This document shows, piece after piece, positions 23,098-39,456 of a DNA stretch of 64,000 nucleotides; position 1 is the stretch's first letter, and every line of letters begins with the position of its first letter. The notes beneath the pieces are model-generated. The model did not search any database. It worked only from the letters and a program-made list of their open reading frames with translations, and was not told where the DNA came from. Source of the DNA: a virus (Duplodnaviria > Caudoviricetes); the IMG/VR virus record IMGVR_UViG_3300028840_001835; one strand, written 5' to 3'. A program made the translations under genes and the position numbers.

Positions 23098-23606
23098 TGG
23101 AAGACCCTGAGAAGAAAGATGATCTATTGAGATCAGATTATAGTCTGGATCCTGTTGAGGAACAGATTGATGTTCAGGTTCCTGAAGGGCAGGAAGGTGA
23201 GTTTTTTGATCTTCCGCATTTGGAAAAAATAAAACTCGCCGCACAGCAACATGGGGTCTCTCTTAAGGATCCTGATAAGGACTGTAACAAATGTCATGGT
23301 CGAGGCTATGTATCGGTTAGATCATTCACGATCTCTGCCGATGACAAAGAGGTAACAAGAGAGATTCCAAATCCTTGTAAGTGTGTCTTTGAGAAACATG
23401 ATCTTCCAAAGATGTTTACGGGTATGATATCGTTGGGCAGAAAGGAAAGACATAGAAACGATAAACGGGAAAGAAGGATAACCCGAAAAGAGTTTCACAC
23501 ATCTGCATCCAACATACTTGAACATAAACTCAAAAAGGAGTTTAAGGTAAAGAGAAAGAAGAAAAAGAAACAACAGAAAAAGGATAGAAAAAGGAATAGA
23601 CGGTGA
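23097..23606 (+). CDS. Hypothetical protein with CxxC...CxC Zn motif and basic tail
   Basis: PDKDCNKCHGRGY...PCKC; Lys/Arg-rich C-terminus. Confidence 0.6.
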   Translation: MEDPEKKDDLLRSDYSLDPVEEQIDVQVPEGQEGEFFDLPHLEKIKLAAQQHGVSLKDPDKDCNKCHGRGYVSVRSFTISADDKEVTREIPNPCKCVFEKHDLPKMFTGMISLGRKERHRNDKRERRITRKEFHTSASNILEHKLKKEFKVKRKKKKKQQKKDRKRNRR

Positions 23607-24553
23607 AACCTAACACAAAGAGAAAAAAGAATAAGTATATCTGGATAGAGTTTTTTCGTCCAATGTCCGTAGAGGACATAATACTTCCGAAGGCATATAT
23701 GAAGACCTTTAGGAAGTTTGTCGAGGAAAAGGAGATACCAAATCTTATGTTGTATTCATCCAGCCCTGGTGTTGGAAAGACGACATTGGCTAAAGCACTA
23801 TGTAATGACATAGGCGCGGATTATCTCTATATAAACGTGTCCAGTGAAAGCGGGATCGATACATTGAGAACATCCATCTCCAGATTCGCATCCACAAAGT
23901 CATTTAATGGTAAGCCAAAGATCGTCATAATGGACGAGTTCGATGGTGCATCCAATAATCTTCAGATGGGCCTTCGTGCAGCGATAGAGGAATTCCATAA
24001 GGTATGTCGATTCATATTTACTTGCAACTATATAACACAGATAAAGGATCCTGTGTTGTCAAGGTGCCAGGTGTTTGATATGAACTTCACCGATAAGAAG
24101 ATTAAAGACGAAATGGTTCCAAAGGTGACCAATCGTGTCTGTAAGATACTCGACTTTAAAAAGGTCGACTATGACAATAGCGTGATCGTAAAGTTGGTCG
24201 AGGATCATTACCCAGACATTAGAAAAACTATTCAAATATGTCAACAGTATAGTGCAGTGAATGGTGTTATAGATAGTAATATTTTTAATTATGAGAAAGT
24301 GGATGAGGAGTTCTATACATATCTTCTCAATAAGGATTTTCGGAATGCAAGAAAATACTTAATTGAAAGTAATTACAATTATGAAGAAATGTTCACTAAT
24401 CTATATCATCATTTTGTTCCAATGTTGACTAAAGAAGTTCAGCCTGAGGCGATTATAACCATTGCTGAGTATATGTATAAAAATAGTCATTCAATTGATA
24501 AAGAAATAAACTTCGCCGCACTCATGCTTGAACTAATGGGACTTATTCAATGA
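23603..24553 (+). CDS. gp44: Clamp loader large subunit (gp44, RFC-like AAA+)
   Basis: WIEFFRP, SPGVGKTT, IMDEFD, FIFTCN, SRC, PDIRK. Confidence 0.95.
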   Translation: MKPNTKRKKNKYIWIEFFRPMSVEDIILPKAYMKTFRKFVEEKEIPNLMLYSSSPGVGKTTLAKALCNDIGADYLYINVSSESGIDTLRTSISRFASTKSFNGKPKIVIMDEFDGASNNLQMGLRAAIEEFHKVCRFIFTCNYITQIKDPVLSRCQVFDMNFTDKKIKDEMVPKVTNRVCKILDFKKVDYDNSVIVKLVEDHYPDIRKTIQICQQYSAVNGVIDSNIFNYEKVDEEFYTYLLNKDFRNARKYLIESNYNYEEMFTNLYHHFVPMLTKEVQPEAIITIAEYMYKNSHSIDKEINFAALMLELMGLIQ

Positions 24554-24792
24554 AAAAGATATTAAAAATGTTAGGGTCTGAATTCATTGAATATTTACAG
24601 TACCTAGGAATGATAGTATTTGGTCTATTTGGTATAGTATTATTATTGTTTCTATGTCTCGGTGGGTTATTCTCAATTGGATTTGGCGTTCCATGTTACA
24701 TTGCGATACCCGTACAGCTTTTGTTTTGGTTCATCTTGAAAGTTTATTTCGATCATCAACCGCCATTAAATAGTGATGGATTTTTTGGATGA
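24550..24792 (+). CDS. Small membrane protein (2 TM)
   Basis: Two hydrophobic segments. Confidence 0.6.
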   Translation: MKKILKMLGSEFIEYLQYLGMIVFGLFGIVLLLFLCLGGLFSIGFGVPCYIAIPVQLLFWFILKVYFDHQPPLNSDGFFG

Positions 24793-25079
24793 AACAATTA
24801 GATATAAGGGTTTTTCATAGAGAAAAACCTAATGGTGTATATGTATTCATACTTGATGATTGCTTCATTTGTCAGGAGTATCTCAAGGAATTAAAGAAAA
24901 TAGATACATCGGATTGGTATCTAATTGACTGCGGACAGAATGCCGGATATTTTCTTCGACAACATAATGTGGATGATGTTCCACATACCAGAGTATATAT
25001 TGATGGAGAGATCATTTGGGAACGTTCCGGTGCATTATATGAAAAACAAAGACGGGAGTTATTTGAGAAGCTAAAATGA
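24789..25079 (+). CDS. Thioredoxin/glutaredoxin-like protein
   Basis: CFIC redox motif, VPHTRVY cis-Pro loop, WERSG. Confidence 0.65.
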   Translation: MKQLDIRVFHREKPNGVYVFILDDCFICQEYLKELKKIDTSDWYLIDCGQNAGYFLRQHNVDDVPHTRVYIDGEIIWERSGALYEKQRRELFEKLK

Positions 25080-25804
25080 TTCGATACATTGTTGCAGCAG
25101 ATAATGAGGATAACTATAACCGATTTTTAAAACCCTCGCTTGAAAAGATAGAAGCCCTTGATAGGGTTACCCTAGTATTAAATAAGGATTTAGATGAAGG
25201 TATATTCAAGAAATATAACCTTGTCTTAAATATGCTTTCAAGTAAAGGAAAGATCAATGATGAGGATGTGTTTGTTTTTGTACATGATGATGTATCGTTT
25301 GAGGATGAGAATCTAGAGGGAAAGATTGAATTATATTTTAGGTATAAAGATAACATCGGGATTGCTGGAGTAATCGGAACAACCATATTTCCGGCAGAGG
25401 GTGGATGGTGGATGTGCGACCGCTCAAAACGAACAAGGGGTAGAATTATACAAGGTCATCCCGATCAACCTGATCATGTGATGGAAGACAAAAAAGGTAT
25501 GTTTGATGACCTTGTATCGGTTGATGGATGTATATTGTTTATGAGTGGACGATTCCTAAAAGACTTTCGTTTTGATGAACAGACCTATGATGGATACCAT
25601 TTTTATGATGTAGATTCATGCTTCACCGCTTTAAGAAAAGGATTCTCCATTGGTATCATTGATGTATTGGTTAGACATGAATCTGAAGGTCCTCTCTCAG
25701 ACTCTTGGTTTACAGAACGAGACAAATTCATCAAGAAATGGACCGCCAGGGGTATGAAGTTTCCCATTCTTAGGGAACATTTATATCAGAATATAAATAG
25801 TTAA
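25076..25804 (+). CDS. GT-A fold glycosyltransferase (GT2-like)
   Basis: KKYN, FVFVHDDV (DxD-like), GIAGVIG, VDGCILF, FDE..YDGYHFYDVD, VRH. Confidence 0.8.
   Translation: MIRYIVAADNEDNYNRFLKPSLEKIEALDRVTLVLNKDLDEGIFKKYNLVLNMLSSKGKINDEDVFVFVHDDVSFEDENLEGKIELYFRYKDNIGIAGVIGTTIFPAEGGWWMCDRSKRTRGRIIQGHPDQPDHVMEDKKGMFDDLVSVDGCILFMSGRFLKDFRFDEQTYDGYHFYDVDSCFTALRKGFSIGIIDVLVRHESEGPLSDSWFTERDKFIKKWTARGMKFPILREHLYQNINS
25792..25799 (+). promoter_or_regulatory. T4-type late promoter
   Basis: TATAAATA 26 nt before the endolysin start. Confidence 0.7.
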
Positions 25805-25825
25805 AAGTTTATTAAATAATGAGGA

Positions 25826-26251
25826 TTGTGTATGCCGAAATTTGGAAGAAGATCATTGAGGGAACTGAAGACCTGTCATAAGGATTTACAGGACATATTA
25901 AATGAAGCAATCAAGTATGTGGACTTTTCTGTTCTACAGGGCAACCGAGACGAGGAGACCCAGAATAAGTATTTTGAACAGGGCAAGTCTAAATTAAAAT
26001 ATCCGAATAGTAAACATAACCCATATCCATCGCTTGCCGTCGATCTTGTACCATACCCTATTGATTGGGGTGACATTAAAAGAATCGGCGCGGTGGCTTT
26101 TGTGATCAAAGGAATCGCCTTCTCAAAGGGGATCAAATTAAGGCTCGGCGTTGATTGGAATAGTGATTATAGATTCACAGAGAGTTTTGTTGATTCACCA
26201 CATATCGAATTACATAGTAAATTGATTGATGGTGAGTGGGTGAGGTATTAA
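25826..26251 (+). CDS. Endolysin, M15 family L-Ala-D-Glu peptidase-like
   Basis: FGRRS...HKDL, DFSVLQGNR, SKH, AVDL, DWN, DSPHIEL (Zn ligands H, D, H). Confidence 0.9.
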   Translation: MCMPKFGRRSLRELKTCHKDLQDILNEAIKYVDFSVLQGNRDEETQNKYFEQGKSKLKYPNSKHNPYPSLAVDLVPYPIDWGDIKRIGAVAFVIKGIAFSKGIKLRLGVDWNSDYRFTESFVDSPHIELHSKLIDGEWVRY

Positions 26252-26655
26252 TGGATGGTCTAGAAGATTTTTACGAAACAATGTGCAGAATTTCTCCGGT
26301 TGGTTTATTCAGGACTGACGAGACCGGAAGGATAACTTATGTCAATCAAAAGTATGAGGACATAGCCCAAATATCAAGAGGGCAAATACTTGGGGTTGGA
26401 TGGTTTGATGCTGTTCATCTTGACGATGTGAAAAAGGTTTCTAACACCTGGTATAATGCTATTGAAAATAATCTTGATTGGAATCTTGAATTTAGATTTA
26501 GATCAAAAGATAAACAGGTCACATGGGTATTGGGTCAAGCTGCAAAGATCAATGGCGGGGGAAAGGGATATGTTGGAACCCTAACAAACATCTCCAAGAA
26601 AAAACAATTGCTTGACGAACTGATGACAATACGAACAGAGATGTTCGCATTGTAA
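26251..26655 (+). CDS. Stand-alone PAS/PAC domain protein
   Basis: SPVGLFRTD..G.ITYVN, GWFDAVHLDD, EFRF..KD.QVTWV, YVGTLTNIS.KK; TAATG overlap with the endolysin stop. Confidence 0.88.
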   Translation: MDGLEDFYETMCRISPVGLFRTDETGRITYVNQKYEDIAQISRGQILGVGWFDAVHLDDVKKVSNTWYNAIENNLDWNLEFRFRSKDKQVTWVLGQAAKINGGGKGYVGTLTNISKKKQLLDELMTIRTEMFAL

Positions 26656-26667
26656 GGAGACAAGCGA

Positions 26668-26904
26668 ATGGACTTTACTTGGCCTATAGCCTTTACGGTA
26701 GTGGCCAGCGTTGTTACGATTCTGGCATTCATATATAAGTTTTTTAAGAAGGACACGACCTGGCAACAACCCGTCAATGATCTAAAAACAGATATGACTG
26801 GTGTAAAAAAGGACGTGGAGAATCTCCAGAAGGACAATGAGAAAATGAGCAACAATATGAAACAGTTGCTCGATAGGTTCATAGATTTCATCCAAAATCA
26901 CTAG
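26668..26904 (+). CDS. Holin-like protein (N-terminal TM plus coiled coil)
   Basis: WPIAFTVVASVVTILAFIY TM followed by heptad repeats; GGAG RBS; downstream of the endolysin. Confidence 0.5.
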   Translation: MDFTWPIAFTVVASVVTILAFIYKFFKKDTTWQQPVNDLKTDMTGVKKDVENLQKDNEKMSNNMKQLLDRFIDFIQNH

Positions 26905-26936: not shown

Positions 26937-27323
26937 ATGAAATTAAGTTTATTTGATCACTTGAAAAATCTGACAATCAATAAGTCGGAGTTTGATCCTC
27001 ATAATGATGAGCAAGCAAAGTCATATACTCCATATATGATAAACAGGTTCATTTCAATGACCGATGTATTGTTGCCAGTCGTAAATCAAATCAATCGTTT
27101 TGATCTTCCAAAATCCGTTCACTATAGATATTTCAAGACACTACTTCCAAAAAGAAAATTCTTTTTCAACTATATAAAGAAGAAAAAGGACGTGGACCTT
27201 GATGAGAAGAAACTACTCTGCAAGTATTTTGAGTGCGGATTAAGAGAGATTGAAAATATAATCACCGTTCTTCCAGAGGATCAGATAAAAGACATATTGA
27301 ATAAATATCGCACTGTTAAATAA
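26937..27323 (+). CDS. gp62: Clamp loader small subunit (gp62)
   Basis: LFDHLKNL, YTPYMINRFISM, VNQIN, HYRYF...KRKFF.YIKK, KYFECG. Confidence 0.85.
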   Translation: MKLSLFDHLKNLTINKSEFDPHNDEQAKSYTPYMINRFISMTDVLLPVVNQINRFDLPKSVHYRYFKTLLPKRKFFFNYIKKKKDVDLDEKKLLCKYFECGLREIENIITVLPEDQIKDILNKYRTVK

Positions 27324-38106: not shown

Positions 38107-38195
38107 AATGAGAGTAGCATATCCAGAGGCTCAACTGAACCTGTTCAATAAGAACAGGAAGGTTGAGCCTATTTTCTTTAAAGGAAAGGAAAACA

Positions 38196-39008
38196 ATGAT
38201 CCGAGACAATTTGAAAGGGCTAATAGGCAATATAAGAAAAGCCAAGGAAGAGAAAAGACCCTGGGTCGATACATTGATGTTTATATCTAAGTTCCGAGGA
38301 ATAATCAGCTTGGCGTTGATGCTTCTGCTGTTTATTTTCTTTGTGAACAAGATTGATATCATGACAGATAACATCGGTGATAGGATGAACCAGATCGATG
38401 ATAAGGTGAACAGGTTAATCCTTAAGATCAATAAAAGAGGATTGGATGTACAGGGTGTCAAGAACATAATTCTGAAATACTGTGATCATATTTCAGTTGA
38501 CACTGCATACATATATGCTGAGGAGATTGTTAGTCTGGCCAATACATATGAGGTCCTAACCCCATCATTACTAACAGCCCAGATATATCAAGAGAGTAAG
38601 TTTTTTAAGGACACTGTTTCAAAAGCAGGAGCTGAGGGTCTAATGCAGATAATGCCAGAGACCCAAGCAATGATCTGCGCAGAATGGAGTATGACTTGTA
38701 CGGATAAAACTGCGTTCAATCCGATAATAAATATGAGGATGGGAGCTTGGTATATGGACTGGTTGATCAAAAGAATCAAACTAATCGAGAACAATAGAAA
38801 CGGCGCATTGGCTTATTATAACGGAGGGGGAAGACAGGCTTTTAGATATATGTTACTTGAAAAGAGTTTGAAAGGTGTTGAACTGGACTCTCTTGAAACA
38901 CATTATATGGAGGCATTAGCAACCGAGACCAAGAACTATGTTTCAAAAATAAATCGGCGGGACTCACTATTCCATCGGATTATAGCAGACCAATTACCAA
39001 CTGGTTAA
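38196..39008 (+). CDS. Membrane-anchored lytic transglycosylase (SLT domain)
   Basis: N-terminal TM, QIYQESKF (catalytic Glu), AEGLMQIMPET, AYYNGG, ETKNYV. Confidence 0.88.
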   Translation: MIRDNLKGLIGNIRKAKEEKRPWVDTLMFISKFRGIISLALMLLLFIFFVNKIDIMTDNIGDRMNQIDDKVNRLILKINKRGLDVQGVKNIILKYCDHISVDTAYIYAEEIVSLANTYEVLTPSLLTAQIYQESKFFKDTVSKAGAEGLMQIMPETQAMICAEWSMTCTDKTAFNPIINMRMGAWYMDWLIKRIKLIENNRNGALAYYNGGGRQAFRYMLLEKSLKGVELDSLETHYMEALATETKNYVSKINRRDSLFHRIIADQLPTG

Positions 39009-39019
39009 GGAGGTACAAG

Positions 39020-39157
39020 TGAGAAGGACAGATCGTGTTTCTAAGAAAGAACTGAATAGAAAAATAGGATCAAACAATAAGAAGAAAAAGAACACAACAC
39101 GAAAAGGTATGGAGCCTTACAAGAGAAAAAGGAAGGATTTTCTAAAGGATATTTAAC
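39020..39157 (+). CDS. Small highly basic protein (45 aa, not in ORF track)
   Basis: AGGAGG RBS then GTG: MRRTDRVSKKELNRKIGSNNKKKKNTTRKGMEPYKRKRKDFLKDI. Confidence 0.5.
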
Positions 39158-39171
39158 GTATAGGAGATACA

Positions 39172-39456
39172 ATGGAAACTGCATTATTGATAGGATGGAT
39201 AGGTATAGGATTGTTGGCTATAATTGCAGTCTTACTATTCACCTTTGTGAAAGGCATAAACTCACTTCTCGATCAAGGTGTTATGGTATTCAAAGCACAG
39301 AGTGAATGGGCAAATCAGATTCTGGACAAGCTCTATGAGGAAAAGAATTCAGGCCAGATCGAGGAGGATAAAGATTCACAGGAGATATATAGAAAGGGCG
39401 AGGAGCTCCTGGACAAGATCAAAGATAATTCCAAAAAAGAAGTTGACGAAAAATAA
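39172..39456 (+). CDS. Membrane-anchored hypothetical protein
   Basis: N-terminal hydrophobic helix; GGAG RBS. Confidence 0.65.
   Translation: METALLIGWIGIGLLAIIAVLLFTFVKGINSLLDQGVMVFKAQSEWANQILDKLYEEKNSGQIEEDKDSQEIYRKGEELLDKIKDNSKKEVDEK

Follow-up and report, generated by a model that had tools for sequence, protein, structure and literature searches.

The stretch of DNA analysed here (the window) comprises 64,000 nucleotides (nt) of the IMG/VR virus record IMGVR_UViG_3300028840_001835 (Duplodnaviria; Caudoviricetes). The source record is a complete genome of 202,503 base pairs (bp) with direct terminal repeats and belongs to an uncultured T4-like phage. Three consecutive small genes of the window are considered: an endolysin gene, a gene for a stand-alone PAS protein of 134 amino acids (aa), and a gene for a membrane protein of 78 aa. 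They follow a late-promoter-like octamer and are located between the genes for the two clamp-loader subunits. The PAS and membrane genes were found side by side at every locus sampled, in three lineages of phage sequences, and in the T4-like lineage the two have stayed behind the endolysin gene through an exchange of the endolysin itself. The pair is therefore treated below as a candidate regulator of lysis.

The endolysin was assigned using PHROG 465 ('endolysin', 1.2e-33) and by comparison with solved M15C endolysins, namely 2mxz (EndoT5, the L-alanoyl-D-glutamate peptidase of T5; 9.4e-13), 23ri (8.2e-12) and 8q2g (7.4e-11); a Pfam scan of the protein gave no match at E 0.1. In EndoT5 the zinc ligands are H66, D73 and H133, the catalytic Asp is D130 and W114 is a conserved Trp (PMC10487532). 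Counterparts of all five residues are present in the window enzyme (SKH...AVD, DWN, DSPH). Two inserted residues between the first His and the Asp put this His out of register, which the alignment with 23ri resolves. Endolysins of the M15_C type are also used by the T4-like phages RB43 and RB49 (PMC10487532). The gene is the sole copy in the genome, and a genome-wide scan found no member of the T4 lysozyme family, no T-type holin (PF11031) and no Amidase_2. Because neither a signal sequence nor a membrane segment was found in the endolysin sequence, the soluble enzyme would need a holin.

The PAS protein was matched by PAS_3 at 7.1e-13 (49.1 bits, the cut-off being 25.6), and five more PAS models (PAS_9, PAS, PAS_4, PAS_11 and PAS_8) exceeded their own curated cut-offs. 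A domain scan of its 134 aa gave nothing besides PAS. The AlphaFold model (predicted local distance difference test score, pLDDT, 83.8) has a PAS core between N-terminal and C-terminal helices, and its strands (residues 17-22, 28-31, 77-84, 90-99 and 107-113) form the five-stranded PAS fold. The top matches of this model in Foldseek were all PAS or LOV proteins (short LOV proteins, YtvA, ARNT-type PAS) at 17-23% identity. The cysteine that forms the flavin adduct in LOV domains lies in a motif of the GxNCRFLQ type (NCRFLQ) on the E-alpha helix. At the corresponding position the window protein reads GVGWFDAVHLDD, without cysteine, and a LOV photoreceptor was rejected. Light control of the cyanophage kind was likewise rejected: the genome lacks psbA, and the gp44-like large clamp-loader subunit is merely about 41% identical to its cyanophage and pelagiphage homologues.

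The core motifs of the PAS protein (SPVGLF..., H.DD, TWVLGQ, ...I..KK) are those of the 'PAS S-box' repeats of bacterial sensor kinases, to which it is 33-45% identical. A hairpin loop, NGGGKG, is invariant across the sixteen small phage-type PAS homologues of the family alignment; the nearest bacterial kinase PAS domains carry an ordinary loop at this place. The PHROG scan of the PAS protein returned only phrog_5982, a family of unannotated function, and no sequence relation to RI or RIII was seen. The rest of the genome held no second PAS, no receiver domain and no kinase ATPase domain.

In the 78-aa protein a short acidic N-terminus leads into a single hydrophobic helix (residues 5-29), which is followed by a Lys-rich flank, a short linker and a long charged helix (residues 39-77). 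The juxtamembrane motif of the membrane protein reads FK+E.PW. A profile search for its family gave 80 clusters of relatives. Of these 80 family members, 77 lack Lys and Arg before the helix, the 15 residues after the helix contain a mean of 4.85 Lys or Arg, and the tail is 44% charged. By the positive-inside rule, a basic flank marks the cytoplasmic side of the membrane. The protein is thus predicted to be N-out/C-in with the long helix in the cytoplasm, which would place its tail in the same compartment as the PAS protein. Neighbours in the ESM Atlas were unnamed viral clusters, and the structure and feature neighbours were generic one-helix coiled-coil proteins. A feature score of 0.90 against the Mu releasin family was taken as a lead only (Pfam DUF2730 gave no match), and PADLOC returned only coiled-coil noise. 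Other than the PHROG 739 match considered below, the PHROG matches were weak and to unnamed families.

Relatives of the locus were found on three metagenomic contigs (L001, L003 and L004), whose PAS proteins are 50-54% identical to that of the window; the order glycosyltransferase, peptidase, PAS, small membrane protein, gp62 is common to these contigs and the window. In the window the octamer TATAAATA ends 33 nt 5' of the endolysin ATG, which is preceded by GAGG (the program-made list of open reading frames (ORFs) starts the gene at a TTG at 25826). In the three relatives [T/C]ATAAATA is located 25-28 nt 5' of the endolysin start, and for the four T4-like loci together the distance to the peptidase start is 25-43 nt. 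Across the window TATAAATA is not enriched (7 found vs 4.6 expected, not significant), so the weight of the motif comes from its placement and its conservation in the relatives. Three consecutive copies, at 25792, 27327 and 27933, are each placed shortly before the start of a gene (25832, 27350 and 27974, respectively), which suggests a run of late transcription units interrupting and following the clamp-loader genes. The PAS ATG shares one base with the endolysin TAA (TAATG), a stop/start overlap kept in all four T4-like loci, and the 78-aa gene, like the endolysin gene with its GAGG, has a Shine-Dalgarno sequence (AAGGAG). The PAS and membrane genes of the window (26251-26904) lie in one frame with TAA and four codons between them (one codon in L001:2834-3544); as the frames differ in L003 and L004, conservation of a fusion by read-through is improbable.

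The peptidase at this position differs between the window and its relatives. Those of L001, L003 and L004 belong to PHROG 894 with a weak match to Peptidase_M15_3, as against PHROG 465 in the window, and BLASTP of the window endolysin with the relatives' peptidase gave E = 10. The genes around it are clearly orthologous, at 44-56% identity (Table 1). The exchange is therefore one of non-orthologous endolysins at a fixed slot (L001:2421-2837, L003:1542-1961 and L004:1404-1817, corresponding to 25832-26251 of the window), and it offers a clean case of modular exchange within a lysis cassette. Since the motif, the stop/start overlap and the orthologous flanks were all kept, the position is an endolysin slot to which the PAS-membrane pair stays attached. 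Retention of the pair through this exchange is the strongest evidence for a role in lysis.

Much of a preliminary description of this DNA, made from the letters and a list of open reading frames, is borne out by these results. It had placed a late promoter before the endolysin gene, and the octamer is there and recurs in three relatives, as a motif match only. The M15 endolysin, the PAS-only protein coupled to it by TAATG and the protein with one transmembrane helix and a coiled coil (one hydrophobic and one long charged helix) were all found as described. A gene order not conserved in relatives had been named beforehand as evidence to the contrary; the order is kept in L001, L003 and L004. 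The architecture had also been called unusual, and the literature searched contained no description of a PAS protein in a phage lysis cassette or of a PAS-membrane gene pair.

The pair was followed into other lineages from both of its sides. Fifteen distinct loci were reached from the PAS or the membrane protein, and in 15/15 the membrane gene lies directly 3' of the PAS gene, overlapping it or within about 13 nt; neither gene was found alone among the loci sampled. In the search from the membrane-protein side a PAS gene was directly upstream in all three groups looked up. The membrane proteins are homologous across lineages (window vs L019: BLASTP 7e-13 over the full length; hhalign 94.7% over 83 columns).

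In the second lineage, which consists of large uncultured phages, the PAS homologues are 147-176 aa long, 41-46% identical, and carry an added N-terminal coiled-coil segment. The PAS gene is followed directly, in every locus, by a gene for a protein of 97-116 aa with the build of the 78-aa protein. A variant, L019, has a tandem PAS-PAS protein before the membrane gene. The pair lies just after genes with weak tail-fibre or virion-protein matches. On its other side (L005:8888-9669, with equivalents in L009, L018, L033 and L034) two conserved neighbours always come next, which encode a strongly basic protein (about 101 aa) and one of about 156 aa that matches no family.

The third lineage was found in a metagenome contig (167 kb) and in virus records (145 kb and 455 kb). 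Its gene order is a histidine kinase, a protein in which a receiver is joined by the coiled coil of the second lineage to the PAS with the NGGGKG loop, and a membrane protein of 143 aa. The kinase contains HisKA and HATPase_c (L014/L015 and L036/L037, with a PAS of its own in the L036 kinase), and the following protein is a Response_reg domain (3.8e-21) fused to PAS. The receiver keeps the acidic pair, the phospho-acceptor Asp, the Thr and the Lys. Many core PAS motifs are lost in this receiver-PAS form, but the loop is kept, as are the last strand and the first part of the C-terminal helix. The two-component pair (L014:3795-5829, L036:3985-6432) is located behind an HNH endonuclease gene and a beta-helix tailspike-like gene. 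A two-component kinase and receiver of this kind are absent from the genome of the window phage.

The reach of the family was delimited by further searches. Neither the PAS protein nor either of two membrane proteins gave a tblastn match among 50,697 records of cultured phages, and the PAS-membrane family is known from metagenomes only. In IMG/VR, the single PAS protein gave nothing in an exact-peptide scan, and a profile scan returned the receiver-PAS form only. A profile search (1.84 billion representatives) and a 'longer' search returned mostly bacterial multi-PAS kinases.

As judged from these comparisons, the conserved functional unit consists of the PAS and membrane proteins and not of the endolysin and PAS proteins, and the module appears to move between large phages as a unit. 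The final domain encoded ahead of the membrane gene is in every case the conserved PAS, whereas the parts upstream of it vary (none, a coiled coil, a PAS, or a receiver with a kinase), which points to PAS as an output or adaptor that acts on the membrane protein. The elements kept in the receiver-PAS form (loop, last strand and start of the C-terminal helix) fit this role. Input may then be supplied by the upstream domains that the relatives have added, that is, by receiver and kinase or by an extra PAS.

Table 1. Features of the clamp-loader region of the window, with identities of the gene products to those of a T4-like relative.
Feature	Position	Strand	Basis or remarks	Identity to relative
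Clamp-loader large subunit (gp44-like)	23603..24553	+	PHROG 168, 7e-93; upstream border of inserted block
Glycosyltransferase	25076..25804	+	Glyco_tranf_2_5, 3e-19; adjoins late-promoter motif on its 5' side	47% (L001)
Late-promoter-like octamer TATAAATA	25792..25799	+	Motif match only; 5' of endolysin gene
M15_C L-alanoyl-D-glutamate-peptidase-type endolysin, 139 aa	25832..26251	+	PHROG 465; PDB 2mxz
Stand-alone PAS protein, 134 aa	26251..26655	+	PAS_3; AlphaFold; Foldseek	54%
Bitopic membrane protein, 78 aa, candidate holin-like PAS partner	26668..26904	+	Hydrophobicity, charge, homology	44%
Clamp-loader small subunit (gp62-like)	26937..27323	+	PHROG 225, 1.3e-20; downstream border	56% (L001)

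Six genes were counted between the clamp-loader genes: those for a two-helix membrane protein of 80 aa, a thioredoxin-like protein, the glycosyltransferase, the endolysin, the PAS protein and the 78-aa protein. The 80-aa protein (24550-24792) has two strong hydrophobic helices and no family match. Its gene lies directly 3' of that for the clamp-loader large subunit and is absent from the relative L001; the protein is a holin-like candidate.

Elsewhere in the window, 38163-39008 encodes a protein of 281 aa with a basic N-terminus, one membrane helix (residues 45-62 approximately) and an SLT lytic transglycosylase domain (PF01464, 2.1e-20; PHROG 669, endolysin, 1.4e-23). The next gene encodes a protein of 94 aa that has a membrane helix at its N-terminus and a tail rich in charge. 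The two together (38163-39456) may be a second lysis-type pair, a membrane-tethered endolysin with a partner of its own, or may provide an enzyme of the virion or of ejection. Outside the window (G000:C1, reverse-strand coordinates 198882-199094 and 1288-1548), two small ORFs (70 and 86 aa) carry signal peptides that resemble those of lipoproteins (LLGC and FMGC), and their products may be outer-membrane subunits of a spanin or lipoproteins of another kind.

The following interpretation is proposed. The stretch would be a lysis operon that a T4-like phage transcribes late; its soluble endolysin, a zinc peptidase of the T5 type, could not cross the inner membrane by itself. The 78-aa protein would act as a holin-like component, or as a required partner of a holin, and so release the endolysin. 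The PAS protein, probably a dimer formed through its flanking helices, would bind the cytoplasmic helix or the juxtamembrane segment of the membrane protein, with the invariant NGGGKG hairpin, the last strand and the C-terminal helix as its contact surface. Binding would advance or delay triggering in the manner of a cytoplasmic antiholin. In the window phage any input would have to come from the PAS protein itself or from a host factor. It is very probable that the PAS and membrane proteins work together. That the cytoplasmic PAS protein controls a holin-like protein and thereby sets the timing of lysis is a more tentative proposal, to which we give slightly less than an even chance. Timing of lysis is the role favoured here because, in the T4-like lineage, the module forms part of a late operon together with a soluble endolysin that needs a holin.

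Several results weigh against this proposal. In lineages 2 and 3 no recognisable endolysin was found closer to the pair than about 5 kb, so the link to lysis comes from the T4-like lineage alone. We infer a holin-like role for the 78-aa protein from architecture and position: it is a small membrane protein with a predicted charged cytoplasmic C-terminus, and its gene lies beside that of an endolysin in the four T4-like loci, not in lineages 2 and 3. Among Pfam and PHROG families it matched no holin family, the only annotated match being a weak one of coiled-coil type to PHROG 739 (Rz-like spanin; 3.8e-5). The holin-like label of the preliminary description therefore stands as far as architecture and position go, and a known holin family does not stand behind it. 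The genome has other holin candidates in the 80-aa two-helix protein (24550-24792) and in the 94-aa one-helix protein beside the SLT transglycosylase (38163-39456). No cofactor or ligand motif was found in the PAS protein. The sensing of a ligand, redox state or oxygen, suggested earlier for this protein, is not supported, as no such input was shown and the flavin-cysteine motif of LOV domains is missing. Finally, the gp44-gp62 region carries unrelated cargo and may simply tolerate insertions.

The main rival explanation builds on several of these points. It holds that the pair does function jointly and does so outside lysis (in superinfection exclusion, in sensing of the envelope or of energy, or with the membrane protein as an anchor for a regulatory PAS), having landed in a permissive insertion site. 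It is favoured by the position of the pair among virion-type genes, away from any endolysin, in lineages 2 and 3, by the glycosyltransferase, thioredoxin-like and small membrane genes that share the gp44-gp62 gap, and by a membrane protein that matches no holin family and whose structure and feature neighbours are generic one-helix coiled-coil proteins. However, four T4-like loci keep the pair coupled to the endolysin behind a late-type motif despite the exchange of the endolysin, which is hard to explain if the position is arbitrary, and the soluble endolysin needs a holin when none of known type is present in the genome. We regard this rival as serious and, on balance, rather unlikely. A related proposal leaves the 78-aa protein as an independent holin and gives the PAS protein another target: as a decoy, for example, it might pair with the PAS domains of the host's sensor kinases and so disturb signalling in the host late in infection. 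PAS domains commonly form heterodimers, ARNT-type PAS is among the fold matches, and the identity of 33-45% to bacterial 'PAS S-box' repeats with retention of the core motifs would suit a decoy. This proposal is improbable; it leaves unexplained the adjacency in 15/15 loci, the invariant phage-specific loop and the kinase and receiver supplied by the phage itself.

The stop/start overlap that couples the endolysin and PAS genes in four T4-like loci would also suit direct regulation of the endolysin by PAS, for instance by keeping the enzyme inactive until a signal arrives, and endolysins of the T5 type are subject to regulation, EndoT5 being activated by calcium (PMC10487532). Such a target is very unlikely, as the PAS protein has stayed about 54% identical while the endolysin was replaced by one of a family that BLASTP cannot align, and lineages 2 and 3 keep the PAS without an adjacent endolysin. 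Where the preliminary description had left the choice between holin and endolysin as the target of regulation, the comparative data thus favour the membrane protein and not the endolysin. One membrane helix, a coiled coil and the weak matches to PHROG 739 (3.8e-5 in the window, 9.6e-4 for the L005 membrane protein, also 'Rz-like spanin') would be expected if the 78-aa protein were an Rz-like inner-membrane spanin subunit with the PAS protein as unrelated cargo. Here the charge distribution predicts a cytoplasmic coiled coil, an orientation opposite to that of Rz. There was no ORF with a lipobox within or after 26668-26904, which is followed by gp62; in other lineages the gene at this place encodes a basic protein without a lipobox. 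A spanin was rejected on these grounds, and we consider this explanation the least credible of those weighed.

Lysis timing determines the burst size and fitness of a phage. To our knowledge, T-even lysis inhibition, with its sensing of superinfection, is the only well-understood case of signal-dependent lysis control. The system described here would be a case of regulated holin-endolysin lysis, with a real chance of a new regulatory principle. If a PAS-based regulator does act on lysis, phages would read an intracellular or relayed signal before committing to it, and the versions wired to a kinase would do so through a sensory pathway of the phage's own. A broader proposal is that several lineages of large phages time lysis by a dedicated signalling module, in which a PAS output specific to phages takes hold of the cytoplasmic tail of one-helix holins of a new class. 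The input would be sensed by this PAS itself (as in the window phage) or delivered by an extra PAS or by a phosphorelay from phage histidine kinase to receiver. We put this forward as doubtful and worth stating; if true, no earlier case would exist of a holin gated by a classical sensory pathway. The three small genes make a compact, testable system, and a family of one-helix membrane proteins without annotation, of at least 80 sequence clusters, is now defined.

Each component was compared with known systems. The window enzyme resembles EndoT5, EndoRB49 and EndoRB43 (PDB 2mxz; PMC10487532) in being a single domain of similar size with the zinc ligands, catalytic Asp and Trp kept, and differs in its divergence, seen in the failure to match Pfam at E 0.1 and in the two-residue insertion between His and Asp. 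The best fold matches of the PAS protein are short LOV and stand-alone PAS proteins (PpSB1-LOV, W619_1-LOV and the LOV domain of YtvA), which likewise have a PAS core capped by an N-terminal helix and followed by a C-terminal one, and lack an enzymatic output. Unlike them, the window protein, at 17-23% identity, is missing the flavin-cysteine motif and has a core of the PAS_3/'S-box' type found in multi-PAS sensor kinases.

With lambda Rz the 78-aa protein shares small size, one membrane helix with a coiled coil, a place in a lysis cassette and the weak PHROG 739 match, but its predicted orientation is the opposite and a lipoprotein partner gene is lacking. Closer in build are the holin-like LysF1b proteins of mycobacteriophages (cluster F1 and many others), which genetics has shown to be needed for timely lysis (PMC13056207). 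They too are encoded in lysis cassettes and have one N-terminal membrane helix, a predicted N-out/C-in topology, basic residues after the helix and an extended helical cytoplasmic tail that is 30-50% charged. The resemblance is one of architecture alone, no sequence similarity being claimed. LysF1b proteins are longer (92-150 aa), have a longer outside segment, belong to phages of Gram-positive hosts and are partnered by a two-helix membrane protein instead of a PAS protein.

The nearest parallel for the regulation proposed here is the T4 holin T with its antiholins RI, which is periplasmic, and RIII, which is cytoplasmic (PMC8385771, PMC11413866). The differences are considerable: there is no sequence relation, the regulator is a PAS protein, and the window genome has no T-type holin. 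Its membrane protein is only 78 aa long and predicted to be N-out/C-in, whereas T is N-in with a large periplasmic domain, and the window lysis genes are clustered with the endolysin gene while those of T4 are not. In both cases, a T4-like phage has a small soluble regulator that acts, or in the window phage is proposed to act, on the holin and to shift the timing of lysis when a signal is received, and the PAS protein would do so from the cytoplasm, as does the antiholin RIII of T4 (PMC8385771).

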